Below, one piece after another: positions 1-40,773 of a stretch of DNA of 47,145 nt. Origin of the DNA: a virus. A program made the translations under genes and the position numbers. Within the stretch, counting starts at the first letter, position 1; the number at the start of each line of letters is the position of its first letter. The notes under the pieces are model-generated. The model had not been told where the DNA came from and made no database searches. It was given only the letters and a program-made list of their open reading frames with translations. The stretch spans positions 1-47,145 of the IMG/VR virus record IMGVR_UViG_3300050187_000010. One strand, written 5' to 3'.

Positions 1-99
1 ACCAAACAACTGTCAAGTTCTTTTCCGCCTGAATAACGCAGGCGCCGGACACGGTAACCGGACTGAATGGCTTGGCAGTTGGAACTCACGACAGGCGGA
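1..99. repeat. Terminal direct repeat, copy 1 (identical to 47047-47145); marks circular closure or terminal redundancy
   Basis: Base-by-base comparison: ACCAAACAACTGTCAAG...CACGACAGGCGGA occurs at both contig ends (99/99). Confidence 0.95.
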
Positions 100-112
100 T
101 AACTGTCGAGCC

Positions 113-253
113 CTCTTCAGTATCGGCTCTGCTCCTTGGTTCCACGCAGGGCAGTCTGGCTGTGATCGTTCGCAAGTGGCATACCGTATATGCCCCCGAC
201 GATTCCATAGGACCAGCAGTGAACAGAGCACAATTAGAGCCGATACTGAAGAG
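113..253 (+). repeat. Perfect 18-bp inverted repeat (113-130 / 236-253) enclosing a 105-nt branched loop
   Basis: CTCTTCAGTATCGGCTCT vs AGAGCCGATACTGAAGAG. Nested stems: GGCATA 178-183 / TATGCC 189-194 and ATCGT 165-169 / ACGAT 199-203. Confidence 0.85.
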
Positions 254-441
254 CGATTCGATGAAGCGCACAAAGGTACGATAGATTATTCCTACCTTTG
301 CATCCCTCACGTAAGCGCTATAGCGTGAGATCAAGCTGACACGGTGAACTGTGCGACGCGGAAGCCAGAAGTCAGTATCCGCAGTTTCAAAGTCCCCCCA
401 GCTCCCCGATGTGAGAGTCTCCGGCTGGGTGGGCGGGGAAG

Positions 442-483
442 GAGCCAGGTTAATCCATTGTGGGAGACTGGCTCTTTTCTTTT
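442..483 (+). terminator. Candidate intrinsic terminator closing the junction non-coding segment
   Basis: GAGCCAG (442-448) pairs with CTGGCTC (468-474) and is followed by TTTTCTTTT. The loop is long (19 nt), so confidence is moderate. Confidence 0.4.
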
Positions 484-510
484 AAAGTCCTTGTAAAAGT
501 TTCTGCAATT

Positions 511-552
511 CTTGATTGACTCCGCGCGGATATTCCGGTTAAATACTCGCGC
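511..552 (+). promoter_or_regulatory. Composite promoter copy A (TTGACT-17-TTAAAT with two CGCGCG-type boxes)
   Basis: CTTGATTGACTCCGCGCGGATATTCCGGTTAAATACTCGCGC. The -35 is at 516-521 and the -10 at 539-544. It lies upstream of the first + strand gene. Confidence 0.55.
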
Positions 553-586
553 ACGAACGTGGCAACACACCAGGAGATCTCTCACA

Positions 587-859
587 ATGCTATTCAAATT
601 TCATTTCGTTGTACTTGGTGGCCATACACATATCCGGCTATTTACTGGCCCAGGCAGTGGTAGCTTAGCTAAAGCCGGAGAATTTGTTCTCCGCAACGAA
701 GAATTCAAACATCTTCGCGATGGTATCGAAGATACACTTTGCCAAGGCGCAAGTATGACTCACACTAAACTAAGTCATCCTATAGGCCATGACATAGAAT
801 TTATTGAGGAAGAAGCCTATCCAGCTCCCAGATCTATTTTCTGGCGATTCCCTCGCTAA
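587..859 (+). CDS. Hypothetical early protein
   Basis: The ATG at 587 is preceded by CCAGGAGATCTCTCACA, and the same 17-mer precedes the ATG at 898. The ORF-track start at 512 would overlap the promoter. No motif recognised. Confidence 0.5.
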   Translation: MLFKFHFVVLGGHTHIRLFTGPGSGSLAKAGEFVLRNEEFKHLRDGIEDTLCQGASMTHTKLSHPIGHDIEFIEEEAYPAPRSIFWRFPR

Positions 860-897
860 TCCCAGCATGATTACTAACTTTCCAGGAGATCTCTCAC

Positions 898-1431
898 ATG
901 TCCTCAAAAGCCAAGCTCCATGCCCGGCGCCGCGCGCAGCGTTTCGGTGACCTCGACCAGCTATTAGCTGAAGCCCTCAAAGACCAACGCAAGGGCGAGG
1001 GCGCTGTCAAGCGTCTCAAAGGCGTTAACCAAGCCATCCACGAACAGTTCTCCAACCCCGCAAATTGGACCGCTTTAGGCGTTGTCCTAGTCATGTACGT
1101 TGATGAACTGACAGGTGAACAGCAAACCGTTGGCTTGTTTCAAGACCTTCGCCACAAATCAGGCGCTAGAAAACTAACCCGTGTCGCAATGGCTGATTTA
1201 GCCATGGGCTTCAACCAGGAAATCACTCACGATCCCTTTCTGGTAAAACAACCTGAACCTATCTGCCCGCCGGCGGCACCAGCTAATCCTTACGAACGCC
1301 AAGCAATACGTGATTATGTTACTAGGGTTACTACACAGCAGCAATCTTTGGCTGAATTTACCGGCTCAAAACTAGACGCTGCAGCTTTGTTGCGGGAGCT
1401 GAAACAGATGGGGGTTGAGAGAATTCATTAA
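898..1431 (+). CDS. Hypothetical protein
   Basis: 177-aa ORF with a GGAGA Shine-Dalgarno sequence. No motif recognised. Confidence 0.6.
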   Translation: MSSKAKLHARRRAQRFGDLDQLLAEALKDQRKGEGAVKRLKGVNQAIHEQFSNPANWTALGVVLVMYVDELTGEQQTVGLFQDLRHKSGARKLTRVAMADLAMGFNQEITHDPFLVKQPEPICPPAAPANPYERQAIRDYVTRVTTQQQSLAEFTGSKLDAAALLRELKQMGVERIH

Positions 1432-3232: not shown

Positions 3233-3580
3233 ATGTCCTCAGGTCGCCCCCAAAAAATCCTTCGCCCAACTGCGCTCAACACAGTAATCCCTGAGGATCT
3301 ACGTGCGAAGCTCGACTTACACTTGTTCAGCTCGGTTGAAAACCGCATCCCTCACGGGGCTTATAGCAAGTTTATCACTGAGCTGTTGCAGAAGTTTTTC
3401 GAAGGCGGAGTAACAGAGCGAAATCCTAACCTAGCATTAATAGACCAACATGGGCTAAAAGCTCTTGGTCTGTTAACCAAAATCGCGCTAACTGATCTTC
3501 GCACAGGCTGGTCTGCTGACCGCATCACCGAAGTCGTCCGCGAGGCTCGCGAAATCACTGGAAAGGTGCCCGTGAAATGA
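3233..3580 (+). CDS. Hypothetical protein, possible ribbon-helix-helix DNA binder
   Basis: ATG at 3233. The N-terminus (LNTVIPEDLRAKLDLH...SKFITELLQKFF) looks like an Arc/CopG-type strand-helix-helix. This is weak. Confidence 0.4.
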   Translation: MSSGRPQKILRPTALNTVIPEDLRAKLDLHLFSSVENRIPHGAYSKFITELLQKFFEGGVTERNPNLALIDQHGLKALGLLTKIALTDLRTGWSADRITEVVREAREITGKVPVK

Positions 3581-3954: not shown

Positions 3955-4157
3955 GCACCCCTCTCTATCACCTGCGGAAGCACTTTAACTTCCGCCCTAA
4001 CTTCAGCCGCGAATGCCGCGAATGCGGCGCTCGGCCAACTGTCATTGTCGAGGGCCATGCAGTTTCACAAACTGATCTTTGCGGCCCGCATTTTTTTGCT
4101 GATCGCCTGATGGTAGATTGGCAGTTGTGGAATGAACAAGAGGAGGCGACAGAATGA
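3951..4157 (+). CDS. Small Cys-containing protein
   Basis: The ATG at 3951 is coupled to the upstream stop. Contains CRECG...CGPH. Confidence 0.45.
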   Translation: MSTPLYHLRKHFNFRPNFSRECRECGARPTVIVEGHAVSQTDLCGPHFFADRLMVDWQLWNEQEEATE

Positions 4158-4339
4158 AAACTAGAATAACTATCACAATTACAGTTGAGTACGAACAACA
4201 ACCTTCTCTGTATGCAGAAGCCGACAGAACACCGGAACGAATGCTAGCTGTTGATCTGCAAGGGGCCAAAGACGATCCATACTTGTTTATGGAAATGGAT
4301 ATTGCAGTATTAGATGTTACAGGACAGGTGATAGAATGA
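4154..4339 (+). CDS. Hypothetical protein
   Basis: ATGA overlaps on both sides. Confidence 0.45.
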   Translation: MKTRITITITVEYEQQPSLYAEADRTPERMLAVDLQGAKDDPYLFMEMDIAVLDVTGQVIE

Positions 4340-5367
4340 TTAACGACTATCTACTCGATCAAACCACTACCAGTGGGGTTTCCGCCGAGGGCACGCAAAT
4401 CCCCTTCGTCGCAGGATTCCCTGAAATCTTCGACTCTTCCATGCTCGCCTCTCGCAAGGCTTGCCCCGAGCAATTCCGCAAAACTTATATCCAGCACTGG
4501 AAAGCCAAAGGCACCAGCGTTCACCTTCATGCCGGCGGAGCCTTCGCCAAGGGTTTAGAAGTAACCCGCAAGGCTTTCTACACTGGCGAGATCGTAGGCT
4601 TCGTCAACGGCCAGTGGGTTTCAATCCAACGCGAGCCTCAAGATGCTGGCACCGCTATCGCCTTAGGTCTCAAAGCTCTTTTAGCCTTCTATGGCGGCTT
4701 CGATTGCCCCTCGGCCAGTGCCAAGTCTGCCGAGCGCATGTGCGGGGCTTTTGAATTCTACTTCTCCAACTACCCCCTTGATCACGACGATGGACATCCT
4801 ATCACAGTCCCCGGCGGCGCCCGTGCCATCGAATACAGTTTTGCTCATCCTCTCCCTATACAGCACCCTGTCACAGGTAACCCTCTGCTCTACGTCGGCC
4901 GTATGGACGCAATTATACAGTACGCGGGCGGCTGCTATATCTGCGACGAAAAAACTACTACCCAACTTGGAGCTTCGTGGCCACGCCAGTGGGACCTACG
5001 TGGTCAGTTTACTGGCTATGCCTGGGGCTGCCAGCAAGCTGGAATCAAAGTTGAGGGAGCTATCGTTCGCGGTGTGTCGATCCTCAAAACTAAGTACGAC
5101 ACCGCGCAATCGATTAACTATCGACCAGAATGGCAGATTAATCGTTGGTACGACGAACTGCTGGAATGGGTCGAAGACACTATCAGGGACTGGAAACAGC
5201 GTGGGCCAGACAAGCCCTGGCGCCATAACCTCGATCATTCCTGCGCCGAATACGGTGGTTGCCAATTCCGCGAAGCCTGTCTATCGATGGACGAACAGCC
5301 ATGGCTGGAAACTGCGTTTGAAAGGCGGGAGTGGAATCCCTTGCTAAGAGAGGAGAAGAAGCTATGA
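4336..5367 (+). CDS. PD-(D/E)XK (Cas4/RecB-like) exonuclease with Cys cluster
   Basis: GRMDAI...CDEKTT gives the D...(D/E)xK core. There is one N-terminal Cys (ACPEQF) and a C-terminal CAEYGGCQFREAC, as in Cas4/AddB Fe-S nucleases. Confidence 0.75.
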   Translation: MINDYLLDQTTTSGVSAEGTQIPFVAGFPEIFDSSMLASRKACPEQFRKTYIQHWKAKGTSVHLHAGGAFAKGLEVTRKAFYTGEIVGFVNGQWVSIQREPQDAGTAIALGLKALLAFYGGFDCPSASAKSAERMCGAFEFYFSNYPLDHDDGHPITVPGGARAIEYSFAHPLPIQHPVTGNPLLYVGRMDAIIQYAGGCYICDEKTTTQLGASWPRQWDLRGQFTGYAWGCQQAGIKVEGAIVRGVSILKTKYDTAQSINYRPEWQINRWYDELLEWVEDTIRDWKQRGPDKPWRHNLDHSCAEYGGCQFREACLSMDEQPWLETAFERREWNPLLREEKKL

Positions 5368-5540
5368 CCCTTTGGAATCTCATTGGTCGTTGGTGGGGGC
5401 TGGCTGTTGCAATTGCAGCTATTAGTCTCGCCGGAGTAGTTTCAGCATTTTTACCTTTACCATTAGGCAGCATCGTTGCAATGCCTATTGGTATACTAGG
5501 TGGGATTACCATGCTTGCGATTGGGGCTCGTTATGAATGA
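5364..5540 (+). CDS. Small two-TM membrane protein
   Basis: ATGA overlap. The sequence is hydrophobic (WWGLAVAIAAISLAGVV...IGILGGITMLAIG). Confidence 0.5.
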   Translation: MTLWNLIGRWWGLAVAIAAISLAGVVSAFLPLPLGSIVAMPIGILGGITMLAIGARYE

Positions 5541-5871
5541 GGTTTTAGCTAAAGCCTCTCCAAAATTCTGCATCAACTGCAGGCACATCGGCACTAATTC
5601 CAGCCAGGATGCTTCTCGCTACCGATGTTTTGCGCCGCAGAATTTAGTCCGTAAAGGCTTTGATCTAGTCACTGGTAACTGCGCAGACGAATATAGATAT
5701 CCAGATTGTTATACAGCTAGGTTAGACCACGCTGAAGATTCCTGTGGAACAGAAGCCAAGTGGTTTGAGGGTCGGTCAAAGCCGGTTTTTCCATCGGCGG
5801 CTCCAAGCACTGCATATTCTACCGGTAGCCAGGTTACTACCCTGCTCAACCAACTCAGTTCTATGAAGTAA
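5533..5871 (+). CDS. Cys-rich hypothetical protein
   Basis: The ATG at 5533 overlaps the upstream stop. Contains CINCRH...C...C...C...CG. Confidence 0.5.
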   Translation: MNEVLAKASPKFCINCRHIGTNSSQDASRYRCFAPQNLVRKGFDLVTGNCADEYRYPDCYTARLDHAEDSCGTEAKWFEGRSKPVFPSAAPSTAYSTGSQVTTLLNQLSSMK

Positions 5872-8471: not shown

Positions 8472-9794
8472 ATGGCTCATATACTTTCGATCAAAGTCGA
8501 AGACATTCTCATCCCCAAGAATCGCCAGCGAAAAGAATTTATCCCAGAAGATCTAGTTGCTCTTGCGGGATCGATCTCACAAAACGGCTTAATGCATCCA
8601 GTCGTCATCCGCCGAGAAGACCACAATATCATGCTGGTTGCAGGCGAACGCCGTATCAGAGCGCTGCATTATTTGTGGAACTTCGGCGAACAGGTCAGTT
8701 GCGGTACCGCTCGTTTTAACGAAGGAACAGTCCCCTGTATCGATTTTGGCGAACTCGACCCCCTGACAGCGAAGGAAATGGAGCTTGAAGAAAACATCCG
8801 TCGAGTTGATCTAACCTGGCAGGAAAAGGCAGCGGCGACAAAAGAACTAATTGATCTCCGCCGCGAACAGGCAAAAGCCAACGGCACCGAACCCCCAACT
8901 GTCGATACTATAGCTAAAGAGGTCCGAGGAGAATCCACTAATGCCAGAGATAAAACCCGCAAGGAACTTTTGGTCTCAAATTATCTGGAAGATCCAGAAG
9001 TAAAAAAAGCTTCAACAGTTGATGATGCTTTTAAATTACTAAAACGCCGTGAAGCCTTAGCTAAGAACGCAGAACTTGCTGCAAAGGTCGGCGCGACTTT
9101 TAATTCTTCGGTTCACACACTTATTCAGGGGGACGTCTTTGAACAGTTGCCAGAGCTTGCCTCGGGAACTTTCGACGTTATACTCACTGACCCTCCCTAT
9201 GGGATTGATGCAGATAAATTCAGTGATTCAGGCGGCCTTGCGGGTGCAGGAAACACTGGCAGCCATTTCTATAACGATTCCTGGACCTACTGGAATAAAC
9301 TAGCAAAATTCCTCGCCGCCGAATCGTTTAGGATCTGCAAACCCCAAGCCCATGTCTATGTATTTTGCGACGTGGACAATTTCGTCCTGCTTAAAAGTTT
9401 CTTCATTGAAACAGGCTGGCGTGTATTCCGCACTCCTATAATCTGGGTTAATCCAACAGCAAATCGAGCGCCTTGGCCAGAACACGGCCCGCGGCGTCAA
9501 TATCAAATCTGCATGTTTGCTGTTAAAGGAGATCGCCCTGTTACAAAGGTAGTTTCAGATGTCCTTACCTATTCGTCGGACGAAAATCTCAACCATCAAG
9601 CGCAAAAACCAGTGGCTCTTTTTCAAGACTTACTTGTGCGCTCAGTCAGCCCTGGAGACTCAGTACTCGACTGCTTTGGTGGGACGGGCACGATATTGCC
9701 AGCTGCGCATGCTCTTAAATGTCGAGCAACGTATATCGAACGTGACGCTGCAGCTTATGGAACAGCGATTAAAAGATTAGGGGAATTGGAATAA
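8472..9794 (+). CDS. ParB-like nuclease domain fused to beta-class N6A/N4C DNA methyltransferase
   Basis: N-terminal ParB box (LVAGERRIRAL). DPPY motif IV (ILTDPPYGI) precedes motif I (VLDCFGGTGT), which is the beta-class order. Confidence 0.85.
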   Translation: MAHILSIKVEDILIPKNRQRKEFIPEDLVALAGSISQNGLMHPVVIRREDHNIMLVAGERRIRALHYLWNFGEQVSCGTARFNEGTVPCIDFGELDPLTAKEMELEENIRRVDLTWQEKAAATKELIDLRREQAKANGTEPPTVDTIAKEVRGESTNARDKTRKELLVSNYLEDPEVKKASTVDDAFKLLKRREALAKNAELAAKVGATFNSSVHTLIQGDVFEQLPELASGTFDVILTDPPYGIDADKFSDSGGLAGAGNTGSHFYNDSWTYWNKLAKFLAAESFRICKPQAHVYVFCDVDNFVLLKSFFIETGWRVFRTPIIWVNPTANRAPWPEHGPRRQYQICMFAVKGDRPVTKVVSDVLTYSSDENLNHQAQKPVALFQDLLVRSVSPGDSVLDCFGGTGTILPAAHALKCRATYIERDAAAYGTAIKRLGELE

Positions 9795-9795: not shown

Positions 9796-12351
9796 ATGCC
9801 TATTCGCGTCCCCCCAAAAGGGCCTATTCCCGCCCGCATCATGCTGGTCGGCGAAGCCCCCGGTGAAGACGAAGAGCGCTATCACGAACCTTTTGTTGGT
9901 CTTAGCGGAGCTGAATTAAACAAAATGCTGGGCGAAGCCGGGATCTCCCGTTCAGAATGTTTCGTCACTAATGTCTCAAAGTATCGTCCTGGCTTCGACA
10001 ATGATATCAAGAGATTCTTTGCCGGCGCAAAGAAAAACATTGTCGCTGGAGTGCACTTCCCTTTACGCGGCAAAATGGTTACTAAGGAATTAATCGATGG
10101 AGTCGCCGAACTCAAAGCTGAAATCCTCAGTGTCCAACCCAACATCATCATTGCCGTCGGCAACACCTCTCTCTGGGCGCTTATCGGGATCTGCAAACAC
10201 CCAAATGATCTCGAAGCTCCTACAGGCATCACCGACTGGCGAGGCTCAATGCTCGTCGAGGATTTGTCAGGGCGAAACACTCAACTTATCCCGACATATC
10301 ATCCGGCAGCAATCCTGCGGCAATGGAGTTGGCGAGCTGCTGCAGTCCAAGATCTCAGAAGGGCTGCTCGCTTTCGCGATGGAACGAGATTTCCTAAGCC
10401 AGAATGGCGATTTATTATTCGGCCCAGCTTCGACACTGTGGTACAAGTACTGGTGGGACTTCGAAAACGCCTCAATCAAGGTGAACGTTTACGTCTCAGC
10501 TACGATATTGAAACTCGACGAGGGCATACTGCCTGCGCAGGATTAGCCTGGTCCTTGCTGGATGCGATCTGTATACCTTTAATGTGCGCCGAGAATCGCG
10601 CTGGTTATTGGAGTGAAGAGGAAGAAACCCATATAATTAAACTACTCAGCGAAGTCCTCAACCATGTTAATGCTGAAGTCATCGGCCAAAACATTATCTA
10701 CGATTCACAGTATAACTATCGTCATTGGCATTCAGTTCCTCATGTTAAACAGGACACGATGATCAGCTGGCACTCAATGTTTAGCGATCAGCCAAAGGCT
10801 TTAGCTTTTCAGGCTTCAATGGTTTGCAATTACTATCGTTACTGGAAAGACGAAGGCAAAGACTGGGCCAAAAATATGCGGGAGGAGGAGCTTTGGTACT
10901 ATAACTGCGAAGACTGCGTTTATACCCTGGAAATTGCTAACGTGCACCTGCAGACTATTGAAGCCCTAAAGAACAGCAACCGGGCTCCTTGGCCAGCGCT
11001 TCCAGCAGTGCATGATTTTCAGCAGAAAATGTTTTGGCCTGTGCTTAAAGCTATGCAACGAGGGGTGCTGATCGATCAACAGAGACGTAAGGATTTAATT
11101 GCTGAAGTCGAAGAACAGCTACATCACCGCGAACAATTTTTGTTAGATATTCTAGGCCACGAGCTAAATCCCCGTTCACCTAAAAAGATGATGGCTTTTT
11201 TCTACAATGATTTAAAACTGCCGATTCAATACACCAGAGCTAAGAAAGGAGCCCCAGCGAAACCGACTTTAAACGACGATGCCTTGATGAAGTTAGCTAG
11301 AATTGAGCCAATCGCTAAGCCTCTGATCAACGCCATTGCAGACATTCGTACGCTAGGGCAGTTTCTATCAAACTTTCTACGCAAGCCCTTAGACGTTGAT
11401 GGCCGTATGCGTTGTTCGTATAACATTGGAGGAAGTGAAAGTGGAAAATCTGCACCTAAAACTTACAGACTCAGTTCATCAGAGAACGCTTTTGGTTCTG
11501 GAACAAACTTACAGAACATCCCTTCAGAGAAGTCTAAGTCCCTTGGAAAAGCAGCTGCTAGAGGAAGTATTTCTGCTATCGGGGACCCATACCAGTTTCC
11601 GAATATCAGATCTATGTTCATCCCAGATTCAGGCTTTACTTGGTTCGATGGAGATCTTGATCGAGCTGACCTGCAGGTCTTCGTCTGGGAAATAGACGAC
11701 CCGGTTTACAAAGAGCTGTTAAAACGCGGCGTAGACGCGCATTTGTTTCACGTCTATTTACTAGACGGCCAGGAACCTCCACCGCTCGACGAACTGGTTG
11801 AGACTCACCCGAAGTACCTTGACCACCGTATCCCGCGTAAACATAAACGCGAGTTTTCAAAAGTTTTCTGCCACGCTGTTGACTACGTAGGCAGTTCTAG
11901 AACCATTGCTAGTCATGTCGGCCGGACTATCCATGAAGTAGATAAAGCTAGAAAACTTTATCTCGGCGCTCACCCAAAGATCGAGCCTTACTGGAAAAGT
12001 ATCGAGAGCCAGATCAAGAAATTTCGCTTCGTTGAAAACCGCTTCGGTTATCGTTGGTACATCTTTGATCGTCTAGATACTGTTTTGCCTGAAGCTGTAG
12101 CCTGGATTCCTCAGTCTACTGTTTCTATTGTCATCAATAAAATTTGGATGAATCTTTATGAACAGATGCCTGAGGTCGAGGTACTATTACAGGTCCATGA
12201 TTCGCTGGCGGGGCAATTTCCAACTATTCAAAAGGAGATAGCTTTGGCTGGTATTAAGAATTGCGGGAGAGTTAAAATTCCTTATGCAGATCCGCTTGAA
12301 ATCCCGTTTGGGGTTAAGACTAGTGAAGTCTCCTGGGGAGAGGTGAAGTGA
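9796..12351 (+). CDS. Family A DNA polymerase with N-terminal family-4-UDG-like domain and 3'-5' exonuclease
   Basis: UDG4 motifs GEAPGEDE and YHPAAIL. Exo I LSYDIET. Pol motif A DLDRADLQV, motif B RKHKREFSKVFCHAVDYVG and motif C QVHDSL. Confidence 0.9.
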   Translation: MPIRVPPKGPIPARIMLVGEAPGEDEERYHEPFVGLSGAELNKMLGEAGISRSECFVTNVSKYRPGFDNDIKRFFAGAKKNIVAGVHFPLRGKMVTKELIDGVAELKAEILSVQPNIIIAVGNTSLWALIGICKHPNDLEAPTGITDWRGSMLVEDLSGRNTQLIPTYHPAAILRQWSWRAAAVQDLRRAARFRDGTRFPKPEWRFIIRPSFDTVVQVLVGLRKRLNQGERLRLSYDIETRRGHTACAGLAWSLLDAICIPLMCAENRAGYWSEEEETHIIKLLSEVLNHVNAEVIGQNIIYDSQYNYRHWHSVPHVKQDTMISWHSMFSDQPKALAFQASMVCNYYRYWKDEGKDWAKNMREEELWYYNCEDCVYTLEIANVHLQTIEALKNSNRAPWPALPAVHDFQQKMFWPVLKAMQRGVLIDQQRRKDLIAEVEEQLHHREQFLLDILGHELNPRSPKKMMAFFYNDLKLPIQYTRAKKGAPAKPTLNDDALMKLARIEPIAKPLINAIADIRTLGQFLSNFLRKPLDVDGRMRCSYNIGGSESGKSAPKTYRLSSSENAFGSGTNLQNIPSEKSKSLGKAAARGSISAIGDPYQFPNIRSMFIPDSGFTWFDGDLDRADLQVFVWEIDDPVYKELLKRGVDAHLFHVYLLDGQEPPPLDELVETHPKYLDHRIPRKHKREFSKVFCHAVDYVGSSRTIASHVGRTIHEVDKARKLYLGAHPKIEPYWKSIESQIKKFRFVENRFGYRWYIFDRLDTVLPEAVAWIPQSTVSIVINKIWMNLYEQMPEVEVLLQVHDSLAGQFPTIQKEIALAGIKNCGRVKIPYADPLEIPFGVKTSEVSWGEVK

Positions 12352-12356: not shown

Positions 12357-12401
12357 TCATTGAATAACTCGCGCAAATAATCCCCCGGAATATCCACGCA
12401 C
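12357..12401 (+). promoter_or_regulatory. Degenerate or variant copy F of the composite promoter motif
   Basis: TCATTGAATAACTCGCGCAAATAATCCCCCGGAATATCCACGCAC aligns to copies A and C. It has 5 extra nt between the -35-like and -10-like hexamers, so function is doubtful. Confidence 0.25.
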
Positions 12402-12421
12402 AAAACGGATCTATTAAACTT

Positions 12422-16295: not shown

Positions 16296-19200
16296 CAGCG
16301 GGATTCCTCTGGTTCTTCATAGCTATATCGCAGGTGCTCGCGGTTAGCGTGCGGTAAATATTCAGCACGTTCGTCTTCAGTCATTTTGTCCAGCAATCGC
16401 TTTTGCTGCTGCCAGGTCAAGCGCTCGAACATTGTTGCGTAAGGGTTGTAGTCTTGCCCACGTTGCATGACATTACGAGCTAGACGTTGTTGTTCAGTAG
16501 CGGTTAGATCGTACTTCTCTAGCATTTTATCCAACAATTCGCCATATTCTTCAATTTTACCTTCACCATAATAACGTGCAAGTTGCTTTCGGTCATTTGA
16601 CAATATAGCAGTTTCATATGGAGTAGCTGCTGTCGCAAAATATCTTCTGTACAAAGACGATATAGAGGCTTCAGTGTTAGTTTGAGTAGCGTATTGCGGG
16701 GCTTTGCCAAAGCCGCTTATTCCAAGCACTACATCTTTTGCTGACCGGTTGCTTTCCCTAATTGATTGTATGCTGATGGGTTCTAAATCAGCTAATGAAG
16801 CTCTCAGAGTATCCCAAGTTTTTTGCGCTAGTGGCGAGTTAGGGTCACGAATCTCGTGTCCGCGCCAGTCACGACCCGTCCACCACTGACGTACCATACC
16901 GATAGCACCAGAAGCTTTATTAGAAATAAAATGCCAAAGCCCAGAAGTAACGCCTTCATGTTCAATATGCTTAGCAATAGCAGCAATTTCTCGTGGATAA
17001 AATGGCGTATTTACTCGTTTGTCTTCCCCACGAGAATCTTTATCCCCAGTTTTGGGGTATAGATAATCAATTAAATCCTCTGGTGGCTCGCCAGTCATAG
17101 CCCAAGTTATTAAACCGCCAATTAACGTAGTTTGTAATGTATAAAACATCACAAACAGTGGACGATCTAATTCTCCTTTAGCTATTTTTTGAGTTAGTTT
17201 TCCTTTAGTAGTAACAGCTTTAGATATATCACTTACTGCTCCACCGTATTCACGGAAAAATCCAAAAACCCAACCCAAAGAAATCATATTAGCTACAGCT
17301 GCATCCTTAATCATTCTATTCCAGAACAAAGTATTATAGGCCATTTCGCCATAGCGATTGTCAACTGATTTTGCTAATTTGCGTAAAGCCAATCGACGAC
17401 GCCCGACGTCCTGTAATAAGGTAGGATCAGTTTCAAAAGCCGTTTTAACATCTTTAGTATATGAAGCTAACTTCATAGCTGGAATCCAGCGCTCAAACAT
17501 TGGCTTTTGAAGCTTATCCAAAATTGCAAAAGGCGCATACCAAGCGGCTTTTACTCCGCCTTCTATAGAACGTGTACGATTAAGTGGCAATTCTGTAATA
17601 GCTTGATTCAGTGCAGTTCTAAACGATTTTGCAGCATTAGTCTTAAACTGCTCTGATAAGGTTGGAATAAATCCACCTTCATTCACATACTGTAATATTA
17701 ATAAATCAGACTTAGTTAATTTATTAGCTGAAATTCTTCCCGTTATAGCATTTAACAATCTGTAGCCTATTTTAGGGTTATCAATAATTCCGTAAAGGGG
17801 AATTCCTTTTGCCCCTAATGTCAAAGATTCCAGCCATTTCCCGAAAAAAGTAATTGCATTCATCTTCCCCACAGCCATTTGTTTTGCGTATCTCACCATA
17901 TTAGCTGCAGAGTCCATACCAGCTAACAAGTGTATTGGATGAAATAACGAAAGAGCCAAGATCGAAGGTACAATAGAGTTCTTTAAAAACATTGCTCCTT
18001 TAAAAATATCACCTCGTATACCACCAATGTTCCACAAGGATTTAGTATCGAAATGATTATGCAGAATTTGATCTGCTGTACGATCTACCCAATAACCTTG
18101 GCCATTTGGAGCACGGCGATAGTTCCACTCCCCCATAGGAGGCTCTTCACCTTTTTTAGCCTCTCGCGCAAGTCCTTGGTCTGCTAAGTCTTTAAGTAAG
18201 TCGATTCGCATTTCAGCTATATCACTAGCATGCGCGCGAGCCAACATAATTTCTTCTGGATTAGTATACTTGGGCGTAAAACCAGCTTTAATAGCCTCTT
18301 CGTATAAAGCAAATTCTCGATCCTTGGTAAATCCAGGATTACCCCATTTGACACCGTATTTACCCTCAAAGTAAGTACTAACACCTTCGCCGTCTTCGAA
18401 AGAGTGATATAGGTAGTTATCGATAGGATCATATTCAATTTTGTTTTTACGATCCTGTTCGAAAATTTCCTTATTTCTCTCTCGGATGTTTTCAGCAGCT
18501 TTCTGCAACACTGGATCTTTAAATCGTGCTCCAGTTTCAAAAAACCGCATAAATAAACGAATGTCAACAGCCGACATTTTTTGCCAGAAGGCTAAGCGAT
18601 CTTTAGCAAACCCATAATTTGCGGTTTCTAGGTTTGACGATCTTGCTATATGAAAAGCAAGAGTTGCTGCAGTTTTTTTAGCCTGTTCGCCGAGAGCTTC
18701 AGGGTTGACGTTGCGGATTAGTTCTGTGTACCAAGCTGTAAGTTTGCCCTGAACAAATTTGCCACCGGGAAGGGAATCAAGAGTTGGGCCGGAAGCGAAA
18801 ATTTGTTGCTGTTGCGGAGTGATAGTTGGTTCAGCGACAGGTGCTTCTACCTGTCGCGTCACTTCATAAACCGGCACTCGCGGGTCGGCGGAGACCTTTG
18901 AACCATTTATTCCAGGGCTGTTAGGATTTTCCTTTACTTCAAAGCCCTTTTGTTTTAGTGCTGCATAAACACGTTGTTGGTCCTGAGAAACGCTAAAGTC
19001 GCTAGCTAAAGTTAACCCTCGCCGTTGTACTTCATCGGCCAACGTCTGCATCATCTCCTGTGCTCGGCCCTTGCCACGTTCAGCCTCAGCAACATCTATA
19101 CGTTTAACCTGTAAAAACTGGCGATTTTCCTGCGCCAGCAGTTCGCCAACAGAAGATTTAACTTCAACTTGCCCGGTGTCTTCGTCAACAGTTAACTGTG

Positions 19201-25749: not shown

Positions 25750-26697
25750 TTAAGCAGGATCAGCACTGGTAAAGCCAGCGGACGAAGCGTTACCGTACCA
25801 GTTGTCGCCAGCTCCACCTACTCTATAACCACCTGCTATACTGTAAGTACCTGACAAGTTATTCCAGCTAACTTGGTTAGTACCAGTTCCGCCATTAAGG
25901 TCAATGCCGCCACTGCTGCCAGCAGCAGTAAACGGTCCTATGTTATTGTATTCGATTACAGAATTCTGCAAGGCCATTGTAATTTGACTGGTATTAGGCC
26001 CAAATACGTTATGATGAATATGCCAGCCATTACCATTGATCCCACTCATCGCAGTAGTCATGTCGTTAAATTTGCAGTTAGCAACTTCAACATTGAAAGC
26101 GATTTCAGTAAACAAACCGGCTACACCACTACGAATGCCGATGCCTGTTCCAGCGAAACGACACCCCAAAAGTTGACAGTGTGAGCCGTCGCGCTCCGCA
26201 TCGCCTGCACCAGCATTACGCACAATCTCAACACAGGCTGCATTAACGTCGATCGCAGTAAACAGAATGTTGACAAATCGCCAACCTTGCTGCAGAACAC
26301 GAACCGTTGCTTGTGCAGCGGTGCCACCGCTAGGAGCGCCCCATTGTGAAGCTGCCCAATTACCACCTGCCGGCGTTGCATCAGCATGACGCGGGCGGTT
26401 GCCACAACCTACGACAGTGACGTCAAAAATCTGAACAGGAGTAACCAGCTGTTCTTCGATCTTGCCGACGAAATAAATAATATCGCCACTAGCAATTGAA
26501 TCAAAAGCCCGATCCATCGTAGCGAAAGCGGTTCCTGGGCTGCGACCATCACCGTCACCACCATAGGAAGAGTCAACAAACCATGCTCGGCCTTTGTTCT
26601 GAATGCCTCGGTTGTTGAAGAAGGTTTTGCTGACGTCGAAGCCCAAGCCAACAGGGGCACCGCCGAATTGCCGAACCATGTCTGCAAAAGTAGTCAT
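25750..26697 (-). CDS. Right-handed beta-helix (pectate-lyase-fold) virion protein
   Basis: WFVDSSYGGDGDGRSPGTAFATMDRAF (DUF1565-like N-cap) followed by repetitive G/N/V-rich rungs. It has its own promoter (copy E) and a GGAGA Shine-Dalgarno sequence. Confidence 0.6.
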   Translation of the reverse strand: MTTFADMVRQFGGAPVGLGFDVSKTFFNNRGIQNKGRAWFVDSSYGGDGDGRSPGTAFATMDRAFDSIASGDIIYFVGKIEEQLVTPVQIFDVTVVGCGNRPRHADATPAGGNWAASQWGAPSGGTAAQATVRVLQQGWRFVNILFTAIDVNAACVEIVRNAGAGDAERDGSHCQLLGCRFAGTGIGIRSGVAGLFTEIAFNVEVANCKFNDMTTAMSGINGNGWHIHHNVFGPNTSQITMALQNSVIEYNNIGPFTAAGSSGGIDLNGGTGTNQVSWNNLSGTYSIAGGYRVGGAGDNWYGNASSAGFTSADPA

Positions 26698-26790
26698 GAA
26701 ACGATCTCCAATGAACTACCTACTAGGGGAGACCCTCCGACAGCTCCTCGACCACGAGCCAATAGGTAGCAGTTGTGGATAGTCGAGATT

Positions 26791-26836
26791 CTCGCGCGGA
26801 TATTTAAATGGAATACCCGCGCGAGAAATCAATCAT
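26791..26836 (-). promoter_or_regulatory. Composite promoter copy E (minus strand), internal to the late arm
   Basis: The reverse complement reads ATGATTGATTTCTCGCGCGGGTATTCCATTTAAATATCCGCGCGAG. It lies between the capsid gene stop and the beta-helix gene. Confidence 0.5.
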
Positions 26837-26850
26837 ACCGCCCCTCTACC

Positions 26851-27771
26851 TCAGGGCCCGTTCGACCCATAAATACCTCGGGCATCAGTATTACCTACCG
26901 ACAGCCGCATGTAAGTCGAGGCTTTAGCATTCTTCGTATCGAAGTCGTTGTCCTGGTCAAAAATCGGCCTATCTCGCCAGAACATCTGCATGCCATTAGG
27001 GCAATTAGTTCTGACATACCAGGCTCGTGGAGCAGTAAAAAAGTGGCACATCTTAATGCCCTTAGGCAGAGCATTAGTCGCGCGCAGAACGTTGAGGTTG
27101 TTGTTAGCGGTGTCAGACTGCAGCACACTCTTTAAGATGCGATTAGCATTCCACCATTCATTCGGAGCAACATGCAGAGACTGCATCATGAACGAGACTT
27201 TCAGTCCACGGTCGTTCTGCGCCTGCATGATCTGAATACCCATGTCTTCGATGGAGGTTTCAGTCAAGTCAGCCGCAGGTGAAAGGGCATTGGACCAAGT
27301 CCCACCGGTTGTGTTTACATGAGCAGTAGAGATCAGAGTCTGACCATCAGCACTCAAGAAAACAGCACCGGTGAAGGCGTCGTTGTAGACCGCAGCTGCA
27401 ATGTTTTCGACAGTCTGATTAATCGAAAAGGCATTAGCCTGGACCCGGCTGCGAGAAACCTTTTCATAAAGGTTATCGCGCAGCTCTTCAAAGGTCACTT
27501 TGTAACCCAGGGCATAAGCGATATGCGTGTAGCGCTGAGTTGGACCCTGAACCTCGCTATCGTAGCTGATCGAAGCACCTTCAGCCTTTGCTGGGGCGAG
27601 GCCGAAGCCAGTGATCTGGGTGTCCTCCTCATAGGACATTCCAGAATCCATAATGTCGTAGAGGTCTGGGTGTTCCTGCGGATGTGCTGCGTAGACCTGG
27701 CCCCAAAAAGCATGTACACCGGGCCACAGGGCCTTGGGGTGCGAACCGGTATTGATGACGCCGCCTGGCAT
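26851..27771 (-). CDS. Major capsid protein (HK97-fold type, no delta domain)
   Basis: 306 aa with a strong AGGAG Shine-Dalgarno sequence, downstream of the scaffold-like gene. The sequence character is typical of capsid proteins. This is recognition only. Confidence 0.6.
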   Translation of the reverse strand: MPGGVINTGSHPKALWPGVHAFWGQVYAAHPQEHPDLYDIMDSGMSYEEDTQITGFGLAPAKAEGASISYDSEVQGPTQRYTHIAYALGYKVTFEELRDNLYEKVSRSRVQANAFSINQTVENIAAAVYNDAFTGAVFLSADGQTLISTAHVNTTGGTWSNALSPAADLTETSIEDMGIQIMQAQNDRGLKVSFMMQSLHVAPNEWWNANRILKSVLQSDTANNNLNVLRATNALPKGIKMCHFFTAPRAWYVRTNCPNGMQMFWRDRPIFDQDNDFDTKNAKASTYMRLSVGNTDARGIYGSNGP

Positions 27772-32923: not shown

Positions 32924-35398
32924 TTAGTATCCTGTTACTGGAGAACGCCCGTCGCCGCCGCGACGCATGGACTGTGATAACATGACTTCGCGAAGTTCGT
33001 CGTCAGTAAGCTGGTCGTCGTCTTCCACTGCTACTTCTTCAAGGCCAATTACCAGCCAAGCTGTTGAATCAAATTGATCATCAGCAAGGGCTTCGGCGTC
33101 GGCACGGAATAGCAGGATTTCAGCCTCATATTCCTCGTACCACTCAGCGTCCTTGTCAAACCGCATTGAACCAGCACGAGAACGCTTTTGAAACGGCCGA
33201 CCACGAACAGCCTTGTCCTTTACCGGCATGCGAGGTTCTAGGTTGAGGTAAACGCCGCGCTCTCGCATTTCGCTGCGTAGAATAGGTTCGAGGGTCTTCC
33301 AGATCACGCCGTCTTCGACGTAGAAGGTGAAGTCGTTTAAGTCGTCAGCCCAACGTTTAGCAATGTCAAAGAATTTTTCAATCACCTCAGCACTATGCCA
33401 ACGGCCAACATGTTGATCTTCGATGCAGATAGTGTTGTCGAGGCACTTGCCGCCGATAGTAAAGGAAGTGCGATTAGCGGTGTCGTCTTTAGAAACAGCA
33501 AAGTCAACACCGCAGCCCCGGCGTTTGAACTGGCTGCGATAATCGACTTCGATTAAGTTATCATGAACGTCCTTGGTGGTGAAGATCATTGGCAGCATAT
33601 CATCTTTACGAATATACTGCTCTTCATTATCGCGAGGATCGTTAAGGTATTCCTGAGAATATCCCGCAGCATCGCCTTCGGCTACGAATTCTCGCTGAAT
33701 AGCGCTAAGGCGGTCAGCAGGGAATTTCTCTGGCCACAGAATCTGAGTGAAATCGTTAAAGGCTCGATGGGCCTTGTACTTGCGGGAGTGCCAGGCTTTG
33801 TTTTTGATTAAGTGGTTTAGCAAAGAGTCTTCATGCAAGATAGTCCCATGAACCCGAATCCGCCCGCCATCGCGAAGGGCTTGTTTGCAAGCCCTGAAAA
33901 ACCAGCGCCGAAACTTGCGTCGGCGGTCTTTATTTTCGACCTGTTCATCGTCTTCTAGGTCATCACAGACGATCAGCCCAGGACGCTTTCCACGCCATTT
34001 GCGACCGCGGATCTTTTGTTCAGCTCCGCGAGCAATGATTCGAAACTGGTGGCCGTCGACGCATTCAATGACGATGTCGGTTTTCTGCTCGGTGCAGAAA
34101 TCCTTGATCTTGAAGTCGCGGCGTAGATCTTCGTTCTCGCGAAGCTCGTTAGCGATATCACCAAGATGTTCAATGGACATCTCTTCTGAAGCTCCAACGA
34201 GAATGACATAGTCTTCCTGGCGGAAACAGACATTAGCCAGGATAAAGTCGTGGGTCAAGCCTGTGCTGTTGTGAGTAAGCAAAAAATCTTCAGTCACATA
34301 AAGACCGTCTTCTGCTGCAACTGTAATACAACGTGAAGCTTCTTCACCAACATAGTCTATTGCTGTTATGCTGAGTCGTTCGTTGTTACAGCCTTTCCAT
34401 AAAGCTGCCTTTCTGTGCAACCTAAAAGGACACAAATCCTTTGGTAATTTAACCGACACTCTGTAAGAAGTTTGTGTCGCGCCTTTTGCAGACTTAGTTA
34501 TAGAAACTACAGCTACGCCGCCGAGGCTACGCACAATAAACACCACGGCTTCAACAAGATTTTCGTTGGTGTTGCAGAAATAAGCAATCTTACCGTCTTG
34601 GTGAACAGTCCCATCGGTGTCCATCAATCCCTGTAGCAGGGCCAGACGTTTAACTGGAGTGTCAACCAAATACAACGCAGGTACAAATTTATTATTCAGC
34701 AAACCCGCTGCCTGAAGTCTATCTCTAAAACCTTCTGGTTTGTATAGATAACTTCCAGCTTGTTTAATAACAACACAGTCAAACCAGTTGAATATCTCAG
34801 GATCAGCAGAAGTTATTCGTCCATCAGCCGCGTGGCCATCGCCAAGCCACACACCAAGCATATAGGCTGGAATATCAAGTTCCTCTCCATGCTCGAAAAA
34901 GCAAACAGGCTTGCAGAGCGGCAAAAAAGCTCTATATTCAATGTAGCCATTCGGCTTTTGCGCAAAAGCTTTAAGTTTTAGCTCCTTTAATGAAAGTGTT
35001 ATTAGCCTTTCACCTGTATTGCTGGGGATATACACAGACCACAGATGTTCATCGTTGCACAAAACAGCCCGTTCGTCTTTTGTTTCCAGTCTGTAAGTTG
35101 GCTGAACAGCAATAGGGTGTAACTGTGTTACTCGTGTGGCATGCCCATCGCTGCCAATAACAAAATCACCAACCGATAGTTCTCCAATTGTTGTCCATCC
35201 AGTAGGAGTCAGCACTTTGGTTTTCAGCGGCTGTGCTTTTGCGTGATTTCTGGGAGCCGCGGTAGCACATGCAGGATAATCGCTGCAGTAACGATTCCAA
35301 CATTCACGGTGGAAGTCCGGCGTTGGCTGAGGCGCGTCGTAACGGGGGCTGAGATAAACCCCCGCAAAAGCCTCGATCATCTCAGCGGTGAGCTTCAC
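32924..35398 (-). CDS. terL: Terminase large subunit, interrupted by an intein (mature ~501 aa)
   Basis: The P-loop AAPRNHAK|...|STGL is split after Lys54. Walker B is RPGLIVCDDLEDDE. The C-terminal part is nuclease-domain sized. GTG start. Confidence 0.85.
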   Translation of the reverse strand: MKLTAEMIEAFAGVYLSPRYDAPQPTPDFHRECWNRYCSDYPACATAAPRNHAKAQPLKTKVLTPTGWTTIGELSVGDFVIGSDGHATRVTQLHPIAVQPTYRLETKDERAVLCNDEHLWSVYIPSNTGERLITLSLKELKLKAFAQKPNGYIEYRAFLPLCKPVCFFEHGEELDIPAYMLGVWLGDGHAADGRITSADPEIFNWFDCVVIKQAGSYLYKPEGFRDRLQAAGLLNNKFVPALYLVDTPVKRLALLQGLMDTDGTVHQDGKIAYFCNTNENLVEAVVFIVRSLGGVAVVSITKSAKGATQTSYRVSVKLPKDLCPFRLHRKAALWKGCNNERLSITAIDYVGEEASRCITVAAEDGLYVTEDFLLTHNSTGLTHDFILANVCFRQEDYVILVGASEEMSIEHLGDIANELRENEDLRRDFKIKDFCTEQKTDIVIECVDGHQFRIIARGAEQKIRGRKWRGKRPGLIVCDDLEDDEQVENKDRRRKFRRWFFRACKQALRDGGRIRVHGTILHEDSLLNHLIKNKAWHSRKYKAHRAFNDFTQILWPEKFPADRLSAIQREFVAEGDAAGYSQEYLNDPRDNEEQYIRKDDMLPMIFTTKDVHDNLIEVDYRSQFKRRGCGVDFAVSKDDTANRTSFTIGGKCLDNTICIEDQHVGRWHSAEVIEKFFDIAKRWADDLNDFTFYVEDGVIWKTLEPILRSEMRERGVYLNLEPRMPVKDKAVRGRPFQKRSRAGSMRFDKDAEWYEEYEAEILLFRADAEALADDQFDSTAWLVIGLEEVAVEDDDQLTDDELREVMLSQSMRRGGDGRSPVTGY
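34268..35236 (-). mobile_element. Intein (323 aa) with LAGLIDADG homing endonuclease, inserted in the TerL Walker A motif
   Basis: It begins AQPLKTKVLTPTGW (block A with Ala1). Block B is NDEHLW. LAGLIDADG motifs are LGVWLGDGHA and LLQGLMDTDGT. Block F is SRCITV. It ends LLTHN followed by Ser. Confidence 0.8.
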
Positions 35399-38180: not shown

Positions 38181-38195
38181 GGCAAGTAACAGTAA

Positions 38196-38408
38196 TCAAT
38201 AACCGCCGTATTGTCGGCCCTTGACAGATGACTTGCGGCGAGGCATTTTGTCCATTGGGTCTCCGCCGAGCTGCGCGCGCTGGCGAATCGGCTGGGCGTC
38301 GGTGGGGGGTTTCTGGCCCTGGAGATCTCCGCCTGGGCTGACAGTAGTTGAATACCGCTGGCCTGTAGAACCGGCGGAGCCCATTGGCCGCGAGCGATGG
38401 ATAGACAT
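38196..38408 (-). CDS. Small basic protein
   Basis: AGGAG lies 9 nt upstream of the ATG. GC-rich. Confidence 0.45.
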   Translation of the reverse strand: MSIHRSRPMGSAGSTGQRYSTTVSPGGDLQGQKPPTDAQPIRQRAQLGGDPMDKMPRRKSSVKGRQYGGY

Positions 38409-38414
38409 TTGAAG

Positions 38415-39083: not shown

Positions 39084-39130
39084 ATTCCAAACTCCTGGCT
39101 GTTAAAGCCTAGCCACCTAGCCCTCTCCCG

Positions 39131-39162
39131 CGCGTTTTAACCCGGCGGCGCCGAGCTGTCAA
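39131..39162 (-). promoter_or_regulatory. Candidate sigma70-type promoter for the minus-strand arm
   Basis: The reverse complement reads TTGACA-16 nt (GC-rich)-TTAAAACGCGCG, related to the composite promoter family. Confidence 0.4.
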
Positions 39163-39510: not shown

Positions 39511-39561
39511 GTGACAAAAATTGTCACAATGTGACGGTCACAATGTGACCAAAATTGTCAC
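39511..39561. promoter_or_regulatory. Operator array: six GTGAC/GTCAC half-sites with symmetric 7-3-1-3-7 spacing
   Basis: GTGACaaaaattGTCACaatGTGACgGTCACaatGTGACcaaaattGTCAC. It contains two adjacent GTCAC-AAT-GTGAC palindromes. Confidence 0.6.
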
Positions 39562-40733: not shown

Positions 40734-40773
40734 AAAGCCCAGGGCGGAGCCCGAGGGCGATCCGAAATCGCTG

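Follow-up and report, generated by a model that had tools for sequence, protein, structure and literature searches.

Two RNA modules, a conserved structured RNA and a candidate anti-ribosome-binding-site hairpin, in the junction gap of an uncultivated podophage genome

What occupies a gap that is poor in open reading frames (ORFs), dense in hairpins, and placed directly before the early genes of a tailed phage? The gap considered here belongs to IMG/VR virus record IMGVR_UViG_3300050187_000010, the whole of which was analyzed ("the window," 47,145 nucleotides (nt)), and crosses the circular junction of that genome from the end of a gene for a 215-amino acid (aa) protein at 46966 to a putative early promoter at about 511. 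The initial annotation saw in it a candidate large structured RNA of ~0.67 kb or a packaging region. Comparison with related loci shows instead that conservation is confined to two stretches, designated here module A (62-255) and module D (392-486). As judged from its sequence and covariation, module A is a previously undescribed conserved structured RNA family that is absent from Rfam, and the loop of module D is predicted to pair with the ribosome-binding sites (RBSs) of the phage's own early genes. It is very probable that the gap contains a functional + strand RNA structure; on balance, the gap is probably best explained as a small-RNA island with two independent functional RNA modules.

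To our knowledge, very few lytic phages have a characterized small RNA that regulates the phage's own program. Even for T4, a review of 2010 reports no characterized trans-acting regulatory RNA (PMC3014915). The locus offers a directly testable case, in which a 15-nt invariant loop faces a conserved early RBS and natural variants are available for compensatory mutation. Were module D a global riboregulator of the early genes, it would do with RNA alone what T4 RegA and similar proteins do as translational repressors. The setting of module A, in an island that includes tRNAs, Y RNAs, and Ro60 in sister phages, may be relevant to the manipulation or protection of RNA metabolism by phages during infection. 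More generally, such junction gaps in uncultivated podophage genomes would be cassettes assembled from RNA genes in mosaic fashion and not simply packaging DNA.

A gap in which two stretches are conserved

Positions 1-99 of the window are identical to positions 47047-47145, so that the window represents a circular contig of ~47,046 base pairs (bp), and the wrap-around coordinates of the initial annotation were right. The 99-nt overlap itself looks like an assembly overlap of the kind typical of k = 99. On the circle, the gap consists of 46967-47046 together with 1-510 (590 nt), and lies between two co-directional blocks of + strand genes, one running from 39593 to 46966 and the other resuming at 587. 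The earlier statement that it holds no credible ORF stands, as only non-ATG ORFs of at most 88 aa are found in 1-510 and the indels that distinguish its homologs in related phages are not multiples of three in length.

The stems listed in the initial annotation are all real by direct inspection of their pairs. Complete pairing was confirmed for 47010-47020/47053-47063 (11 of 11 pairs), 26-31/39-44 (6 of 6), 113-130/236-253 (18 of 18, perfect), 271-278/293-300 (8 of 8), and 306-311/324-329 (6 of 6), and 394-402/424-433 pairs with one bulge. What look like mismatches in 71-80/101-110 are G.U pairs: read as + strand RNA, this stem has 10 of 10 pairs (8 Watson-Crick and 2 G.U), and on the - strand the two G.U positions would turn into C.A mismatches. 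The stem at 441-483, formed by GGAGCCAG and CUGGCUC and followed by UUUUCUUUU, was missing from the output of the stem scan, an omission attributed to the scan's loop limit of 8.

When 1-510 is folded as RNA, z is -4.66 for the + strand and -2.49 for the - strand. For 15 control windows of 510 nt taken in the sense direction from the same genome, the mean z is -0.58 and the minimum is -3.9, with the reservation that these control scores come from 20 shuffles each and are hence noisy. Among the predicted folds, 1-510 is thus the extreme of the genome, a ranking that is inconclusive on its own. Two controls that fold well, both in the - strand sense and also scored from 20 shuffles each, lie at about 17000-17510 (z about -3.9) and at 26600-27110 (z about -3.7); the latter covers a divergent intergenic region near 26697-26851 with one copy of an operator motif described further below.

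Relatives were grouped by the 215-aa protein into a close clade of 14 loci (L002-L005, L120-L128, and L327, at 59-74% protein identity) and a distant clade of 79 IMG/VR loci. In every close relative, the gap that follows the gene for this protein is again ORF-poor, and its contents are mosaic. The only parts of the window gap that recur are modules A and D. They are split by protein genes or tRNAs in L002 and L003 and occur in reversed order in L120, and the spacers between them are neither alignable nor conserved across the relatives. Covariation accordingly supports part of the chain of stems first proposed: it is found for 62-255 and 392-486, and in relatives nothing corresponding to the hairpins at 26-44, 271-300, and 306-329 was detected. 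These hairpins, together with the stem at 47010-47020/47053-47063, may be incidental, phage-specific, or DNA-level features.

Module A, a structured RNA with a near-invariant closing stem

The consensus fold predicted for module A by RNAalifold is a rod in which an 18-bp stem, P1, is continued by P2 (4 bp), by P3 with a one-base bulge, and by P4 (Table 1). The P1 arms are near-invariant in blastn comparisons and alignments, reading GAGCCCUCUUC, A or C, and GUAUCGGCUCUG, followed after the interior by UUAGAGCCGAUACUGAAGAGC, and the 18-bp arms and core are kept where the adjoining gene has only ~70% DNA identity. The interior is variable in size, at ~105 nt in a long form of 150-169 nt in total and at 40-50 nt in a short form of 70-98 nt; on the flanking-gene tree, the two forms are intermingled. 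Covariance model R1 detects one + strand copy in each of L002-L005, L123-L128, and L327 (85-158 bits; 11 loci representing 10 distinct genomes) and a trimmed copy in L120-L122 (38.7 bits); no copy was found with it in the 79 distant-clade loci.

The fold is conserved with many compensatory changes: in alignment A7 (12 sequences), standard pairs fill 97.9% of 380 pair cells, and changes on both sides are seen in 12 of 35 pairs. None of 500 shuffles reaches the observed values, and when the 3' partners are slid out of register only 28-42% of cells pair. The changes can be read directly from the raw sequences, with P2 occurring as GUCU:AGAC, GCUC:GAGC, GGGU:ACCC, or GCCU:GGGC and P3 as GGUC:GACC, GUUC:GAAC, or GAUC:GAUC around a bulge that is C, A, or U. 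Because A7 contains 9 G.U cells and very few possible A.C cells, module A is assigned to the + strand as RNA. The G.U pairs of the adjacent P0 hairpin and the strand difference in fold z noted above back the same strand. The + strand reading of the initial annotation is thereby upheld on three grounds, namely the G.U pairs, the orientation of the terminator, and the tRNAs that relatives carry on the same strand.

No family of Rfam 15 (4227 models, including GOLLD, ROOL, 6S, tmRNA, ribozymes, and riboswitches) matches anywhere in the window at its gathering score, and a search of 1-620 with E up to 10 returned three matches only, all at chance level (11-17 bits). A search for antisense targets of the conserved segments of module A likewise gave only 11-12-mers at chance level, on strands that are probably untranscribed. 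A hammerhead ribozyme was considered on account of CUGAAGAG in the P1 3' arm, which fits CUGANGA, and was rejected, as there is no GAAA, no stem II/III arrangement, and no Rfam match; moreover, the sequence 3' of P1 is not conserved and is a tRNA in L002.

Several observations count against the interpretation of module A as a functional RNA that is processed from a transcript. Alignment A7 comprises only 12 sequences from one clade, fitted to the model in a way that favors structure, and covariation of this kind is also compatible with a hairpin of single-stranded DNA. The near-invariance of P1 is odd for a purely structural helix. Finally, no RNA-processing enzyme was detected among the proteins encoded in the window, which bears on the RNase III step discussed below.

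A 5' extension with an alternative helix

Module A also includes, on the 5' side of P1, a conserved CUGAAUGG motif and then the P0 hairpin. The P0 arms differ completely among relatives yet always pair, as GGCUCGAAGGGC/GCCCUUCGAGCC in L125, GGCUUGGU/ACCAAGCC in L127 and L128, and GGUUCGCUG/CAGCGAACC in L123. In addition, a CNGAA sequence within the upstream motif can pair with UUCNG, the outer part of the P1 5' arm, and the alternative helix so formed cannot coexist with the outer 8 bp of P1.

Evidence that this alternative pairing is itself selected comes from position 119, where A or C is the sole polymorphism of the P1 5' arm. It covaries in 10 of 10 cases with the second base of the motif (U or G), and the P1 3' arm keeps U at the partner of 119, so that P1 contains a C.U mismatch in four genomes. 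The U:A and G:C states are interspersed on the flanking-gene tree (polyphyletic), from which it follows that the switch between them occurred more than once. Computed energies nevertheless favor full P1 over the alternative helix, by 11-12 kcal/mol where the pair is U:A and by 6 kcal/mol where it is G:C. Covariation of the local helix together with the dominance of P1 suggests that the local helix is a selected state rather than the thermodynamic end state and, as such, must form either during transcription, before the 3' arm is made, or after the 3' arm has been removed.

Partial copies of this 5' unit also occur. The P0' hairpin of the window (Table 1) has a loop, 47018-47053, that is 97% identical to L005 4820-4855, with differing arms, and P0' was found in the window and L005 only. 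Extra partial copies of the unit of motif, P0, and CUCUUCAG are present in L126 (~3255-3300) and possibly in L003. Such copies (CUGAAUGG, hairpin, and GAGCCCUCUUCAG), which lack the rest of the element, suggest recurrent duplication or recombination.

Module D, a hairpin with a loop complementary to early ribosome-binding sites

The hairpin at 394-433 recurs in nine relative loci. It is always followed by CGGRGAA and then, in most cases, by a terminator hairpin and U-run, downstream of which the relatives have a promoter-like sequence and then the first early genes. The intrinsic terminator that the initial annotation placed just before the early promoter, with a stem and U-run at 441-486, is thus a feature of most relatives as well.

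Within this hairpin, conservation is concentrated in the loop. All 15 nt are identical in the window and eight relative loci, with one substitution in L005, and nine different stem sequences occur, all able to pair. Examples are CCCCCCAGC/GCUGGGUGGG in the window, CCUCCCAG/CUGGGAGG in L002, CGGCGAAG/CUUCGCCG in L005, CUCUGUAGAG/CUUUACAGAG in L120, and UUCGCGAG/CUCGCGAG in L128; this stem covariation was read from individual folds rather than from a pair-count table, as the MAFFT alignment left the stems out of register.

A rationale for the invariant loop is provided by its reverse complement, GGAGACUCUCACAUC, which is the conserved translation-initiation region of early genes, GGAGA(N)CUCUCAC-AUG. 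In five relatives, the site of the homolog of gene 898-1431 reads GGAGACUCUCACAUG, a perfect complement of the loop (at least 13 nt) that extends from the Shine-Dalgarno sequence into the start codon. In the window genome, the sites at 885-900 and 573-589 form the two best sense-strand duplexes with the loop (energies in Table 1); the next best has -15.6 kcal/mol, and most of the 45 sites tested lie at about -6 to -12 kcal/mol. The RBS motif has a density of 0.21 per kb in the close clade versus 0.006 per kb in the 79 distant loci, a 35-fold difference, and L327 is without both the motif and the loop. A search of IMG/VR with the loop pattern gave 17 matches, all in other contexts; seven were examined, and each lacks the RBS motif.

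The loop lies upstream both of the putative promoter at 503-557 and of the RBS at 573-589. In a read-through RNA (385-605), pairing between the loop and the first RBS appears in the predicted centroid structure, and in the minimum-energy fold the local hairpin is retained. The perfect target of L002 lies 870 nt downstream, a distance that speaks against a purely cis mechanism and favors a trans component.

Taken together, these data make it somewhat probable that module D is an anti-RBS element, working either in trans as a small RNA derived from a 3' end or in cis on read-through transcripts. Part of the structure that the initial annotation could assign to no nameable feature would thereby be accounted for, in that 392-486 now has an explanation in the anti-RBS loop and 62-255 still has no Rfam family. 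The case is tempered by several findings. Both window sites (573 and 885) have one extra U, GGAGAUCUCUCACA(A)UG, which introduces a 1-nt bulge into the pairing, and the loop is possibly closed in part by a 3-bp mini-helix. The gains computed by cofolding are small, at -5.7 and -0.6 kcal/mol; cofolding is not known to model kissing pairs between a loop and an mRNA, so that these values probably underestimate binding. In the distant clade, no second pair of loop and site was found with which co-evolution could be examined. Finally, any loop that bears CUCC has some affinity for a Shine-Dalgarno sequence.

A mosaic small-RNA island in related phages

The company that module A keeps in related phages is informative about its nature. 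In L002, a tRNA-Pro begins at the base after P1 (5655), in L128, a tRNA-Ser(CGA) lies 21 nt past P1, and in L005, a tRNA-Pro is found further downstream; a tRNA-Gln also occurs in the corresponding gap of L001, a distant relative. L127 has two or three YrlA-like RNAs at ~4150-4500, with T-arm and D-arm motifs in permuted order, which match Rfam YrlA at E = 3e-6 and 4e-5, below the gathering score. A TROVE/Ro60 gene is located 3' of them (4534-5844; 436 aa; 31.5 bits against a cutoff of 23), the RBS of which itself carries the GGAGACUCUC motif. The tRNAs and Y-like RNAs of the relatives share the strand of module A, which leads to the view that the gap is the small-RNA gene island of this phage group and that module A behaves like one of its RNA genes.

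Another conserved noncoding element of these gaps, "module B," measures ~90 nt and occurs in L002 (4887-4977), L127 (3840-3929), L124 (3729-3818), and L005 (4867-4955). It is ~94% identical among three phages and is predicted to form a hairpin with a possible pseudoknot (CGUGG/CCACG). Module B is absent from the window, and Rfam gave no match in the stretch of L127 that was searched.

A possible mechanism

The favored explanation can be extended into a scheme in which a + strand operon, transcribed from a putative promoter near 46212, would comprise the gene at 46319-46966, the noncoding RNAs, and the terminator at 441-486, ending just upstream of the putative early promoter at ~511. The gap would then be a small-RNA island at the 3' end of the operon, made up of two independent RNA modules and nonconserved spacer hairpins. 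Module A would be cut out of the operon transcript by a double-strand-specific RNase acting at the ~22-bp P1/P2 helix, with RNase P as a candidate cutter where a tRNA abuts. Its 5' hairpin (alternative helix and P0) would form first during transcription, or again after cleavage, and would cap the 3' end of the upstream mRNA, so that the switch between the local helix and the end-pairing helix would be programmed. The released hairpin might persist as a stable RNA, bound by a protein that recognizes the invariant P1 sequence. The RNase III and 3'-capping details are speculative and, on the whole, doubtful.

For module D, the loop would block ribosome binding on early mRNAs. Acting in trans, it would be part of a small RNA from the operon 3' end, the level of which rises with expression of the upstream operon; acting in cis, it would affect transcripts that read through the terminator, leaving only those from the early promoter to be translated. 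A far-reaching version, in which 392-486 is a global riboregulator that shuts off all early genes with an GGAGACUCUCAC-AUG site and module A is a new class of processed, switching RNA, can be put forward only tentatively and is not the version favored here.

Alternative explanations

The earlier idea that the gap yields one ~0.67-kb structured RNA does not hold in view of the separable and reorderable modules of the relatives. A single noncoding RNA of the GOLLD, ROOL, or OLE type spanning all 590 nt would agree with the good fold of the whole segment (z = -4.66), with its placement between a gene end and a terminator, and with the existence of large phage RNAs beside tRNAs (GOLLD, ROOL); it is nonetheless highly improbable given the lack of any Rfam match, even with E up to 10, the restriction of conservation to the two modules, and their separation by protein genes or reversal in relatives. 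It is also improbable that the stems are DNA features of a packaging site, terminal repeat, or replication origin, as in T7-like podophages. The structural genes are of podophage type, the DNA polymerase belongs to family A, the genome ends of T7-like phages lie in such a gap upstream of the early promoter, and both the 99-nt terminal overlap and the near-invariant inverted repeat of P1 could be taken in this sense. Yet an exact overlap of 99 nt is what circular assembly at k = 99 would typically leave, the contigs of relatives break at other, unrelated positions, and the terminase gene is ~12 kb away. Helices that covary and tolerate G.U but almost no A.C, the same-strand tRNAs and Y RNAs among the modules, and the antisense logic of the module D loop all point to RNA instead. 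A packaging role limited to the nonconserved spacers may coexist with the RNA modules, and nothing observed calls for it. Another DNA-level reading, in which module A is a mobile element, either of the miniature inverted-repeat transposable element (MITE) type with terminal inverted repeats of 18-24 bp or a single-stranded DNA hairpin site, likewise has very little probability. Its near-invariant inverted repeat around an interior of 40-110 nt, the interspersion of its forms on the flanking-gene tree, and the partial 5' copies in L126, possibly L003, and the window (P0') would be in keeping with mobility, but each genome has one copy, always in the same island and with no transposase or integrase nearby, and P2-P4 covary in register with the arms. 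Searches of 596 Gb of bacterial and archaeal genomes (GTDB), JGI metagenome contigs, and IMG/VR yielded no copy of P1 with both arms; exact and degenerate arm patterns gave single matches only there, none of which shares further junction-region sequence, so that module A is not a host MITE or repeat or a widespread element.

Among readings that accept an RNA, the most specific is that module A is a Y RNA, a partner of Ro60/Rsr that tethers it to a nuclease. In L127, the TROVE/Ro60 gene is ~400 nt downstream of the module A copy, the size and the long end-paired stem (P1, 18 bp) fit Y RNAs, and P3 (GGUC-C-AC/GU-GACC), which includes a bulged base, is similar to GGUCCGA, the Ro-binding helix of metazoans. 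This identity is nevertheless quite improbable. A tblastn search of the window (E up to 1) found no TROVE homolog; one is present only in L127, where separate YrlA-like RNAs are interposed between module A and Ro60. The GNCGAAN0-1G motif is absent from module A and present in an L127 Y-like RNA (GGCGAAG), module A contains neither GGUUCGAAUCC nor AGCUCAGUGGUAGAGC, as would be expected of tRNA-like T and D arms, and Rfam YrlA and Y_RNA have no match on the window. The covariation of the P3 bases (GGUC to GAUC or GUUC), with a bulge that may be C, A, or U, argues as well against base-specific recognition by Ro. For module D, the corresponding alternative is that the complementarity between loop and RBS is a by-product of another role or origin, for instance, if the hairpin only belongs to a tandem terminator and its loop is left over from an inverted RBS duplicate or serves as a protein-binding site. 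The hairpin does stand directly before a terminator, complementarity to Shine-Dalgarno sequences is easily obtained, and the cofold gains are small. A relic, however, would not stay identical at 15 of 15 positions in nine loci while its own stem changes nearly everywhere, and the complement reaches well past the Shine-Dalgarno sequence (at least 13 nt) with phylogenetic co-occurrence of loop and motif, which makes a by-product unlikely.

Comparison with known systems

If it acts as predicted, module D adds a case, unusual in its configuration, to the known principle of regulation by anti-RBS antisense RNA. With the C4 RNA of P1/P7, with DicF, and with small RNAs from mRNA 3' ends, a short RNA that is produced from a longer transcript and ends at an intrinsic terminator carries a conserved single-stranded anti-RBS region. 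Module D similarly combines a conserved unpaired loop directed at a target RBS with an intrinsic terminator on its 3' side; it differs in having no sequence relation to C4 or DicF and in that its predicted targets are the phage's own early genes, which share one motif. Rfam, which presumably includes the C4 and DicF families, gave no match in the gap. Another precedent is T4, in which the RBSs of genes e, soc, 49, and I-TevI are sequestered in read-through transcripts (PMC3014915). As in that case, the anti-RBS strand of module D precedes the promoter of the translatable transcript, so that only read-through RNAs would carry it. Unlike the T4 elements, module D displays its anti-RBS sequence in the loop of its own stable hairpin, is parted from its target by a terminator and ~150 nt, and matches several genes, differences that make the trans mode at least as likely.

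Module A has its nearest analogs in the RNase III sites of T7 and in RNAC and RNAD of T4. Hairpins of the type cut by RNase III in T7 are long quasi-continuous helices with asymmetric internal loops, located between an mRNA and the next transcription unit. P1 (18 bp) and P2 (4 bp), with a 0 x 6-nt asymmetric loop, together span about two helical turns and could leave a protective 3' hairpin on the upstream mRNA; in contrast to the T7 sites, module A has a conserved distal domain, a strict P1 sequence, and a covarying alternative helix. In hok/sok, the end-pairing of the mRNA competes with alternative helices, and "coupled covariations" result. Positions 116-120 of module A similarly have two exclusive partners, a local, covarying one on the 5' side and a distal, dominant one on the 3' side, which suggests sequential folding or refolding after processing; module A differs from hok/sok in its lack of a toxin ORF or antisense partner and in its context in a phage RNA island. 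Y RNAs are 80-130 nt in length, have a long stem formed by their 5' and 3' ends, and are known in phages (PMC4201824). Module A shares with them (YrlA/YrlB, RF02553) a size of ~80-150 nt, an end-paired stem, and a bulged helix above it, and differs in having no GNCGAA motif, tRNA-like domain, or Rfam match and in the covariation of its Ro-like helix. Finally, T4 encodes RNAC and RNAD, stable small RNAs of its tRNA gene cluster with no known role (PMC3014915). Module A resembles these in setting, as it occurs in an island of tRNAs and small RNAs and abuts a tRNA in L002; it belongs to another phage lineage and has a defined covarying fold that an 18-bp stem closes, with an alternative helix on the 5' side.

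Features of the junction region and the rest of the genome

The coordinates of the features discussed are collected in Table 1.

Table 1. Features in and around the junction gap of the window
Feature	Position	Strand	Components and basis
Gene for 215-aa protein	46319-46966	+	ORF; 236 homolog clusters; homologs anchor the RNA island in all relatives
P0' hairpin	47008-47065	+	Arms 47008-47020/47053-47065 (= 7-19); diverged duplicate of P0
Conserved CUGAAUGG motif	63-70	+	C(U/G)GAAUGG; 63-67 is the 5' strand of the alternative helix with 116-120 (UUCAG)
P0 hairpin	69-112	+	GGCUUGGCAGUU/AACUGUCGAGCC, 2 G.U pairs; directly abuts P1
Module A core	113-253	+	P1 113-130/236-253; P2 131-134/226-229; alignments A2/A4, RNAalifold, model R1
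Module A P3		+	139-142 and 144-145/219-224, C143 bulged; RNAalifold
Module A P4 and distal domain		+	P4 156-164/206-216; distal variable domain 165-205; RNAalifold
Two small perfect hairpins	271-329	+	Pairing verified; no counterpart in relatives
Candidate anti-RBS hairpin	392-436	+	Stem 394-402/424-433, loop GAUGUGAGAGUCUCC at 408-422; individual folds, relatives
Intrinsic terminator	441-486	+	GGAGCCAG...CUGGCUC, then UUUUCUUUU; stem 441-474, U-run to 483-486; folds
Putative early promoter and palindromic operator	503-557	+	TTGACT-N17-TTAAAT; CGCGCGGATATTCC...; 5-6 motif copies in genome
Early gene 1 initiation region, predicted loop target	573-589	+	GGAGAUCUCUCACAAUG; duplex -20.4 kcal/mol
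Early gene 2 initiation region, predicted loop target	885-900	+	GGAGAUCUCUCACAUG; duplex -21.9 kcal/mol

The putative early promoter was not called by a consensus scan; relatives have syntenic TTGACA-type sequences at the same position. Its palindrome (CGCGCGGATATTCC...GGAATATCCGCGCG) stands beside TTGACT-type -35 boxes at 503-557, 2871-2915, 12370-12404, 26789-26827, 39251-39285, and 44084-44138, and these copies probably mark a family of phage promoters that share one operator.

The 215-aa protein encoded upstream of the gap has no Pfam, PHROG, or PDB-sequence match, and its AlphaFold model (predicted local distance difference test score 83) has no informative match in PDB or BFVD, so that nothing points to a small terminase or an RNA-binding protein. 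Elsewhere, the window encodes the gene set of a tailed phage, including a large terminase, a portal protein, and a podophage fiber-tail adaptor, together with a family A DNA polymerase with a uracil-DNA glycosylase (UDG) domain, ThyX, and a Dda-like helicase. Among isolates, Microcystis phage Mel-JY34 has the most similar DNA polymerase (40% identity only), and a blastn search of GenBank phages with the junction region gave no DNA-level match. No tRNA or tmRNA was detected in the window (ARAGORN; Rfam RF00005).

Several further features of the genome are of interest in their own right. The large terminase (824 aa, 32924-35398, - strand) has LAGLIDADG/Hom_end domains at about residues 239-316, homing-endonuclease domains from which it appears to carry an intein. 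Two + strand genes are fusions, one (9796-12351) joining the family A DNA polymerase to an N-terminal domain of the UDG family and the other (8472-9794) joining a ParB-N domain to an N6/N4 DNA methyltransferase. The G+C content is uneven, falling to 0.38 at 17001-18000, inside a gene for a 1398-aa structural protein, versus 0.57-0.59 at 38-41 kb (38001-41000). At 40835-41115, where there are few long ORFs, two 45-nt, ATC/GAT-rich segments 191 nt apart form an imperfect inverted repeat (80% complementary), and a tandem TAATC repeat of ~10 copies is situated at 45393-45445, between the helicase gene and the next gene.

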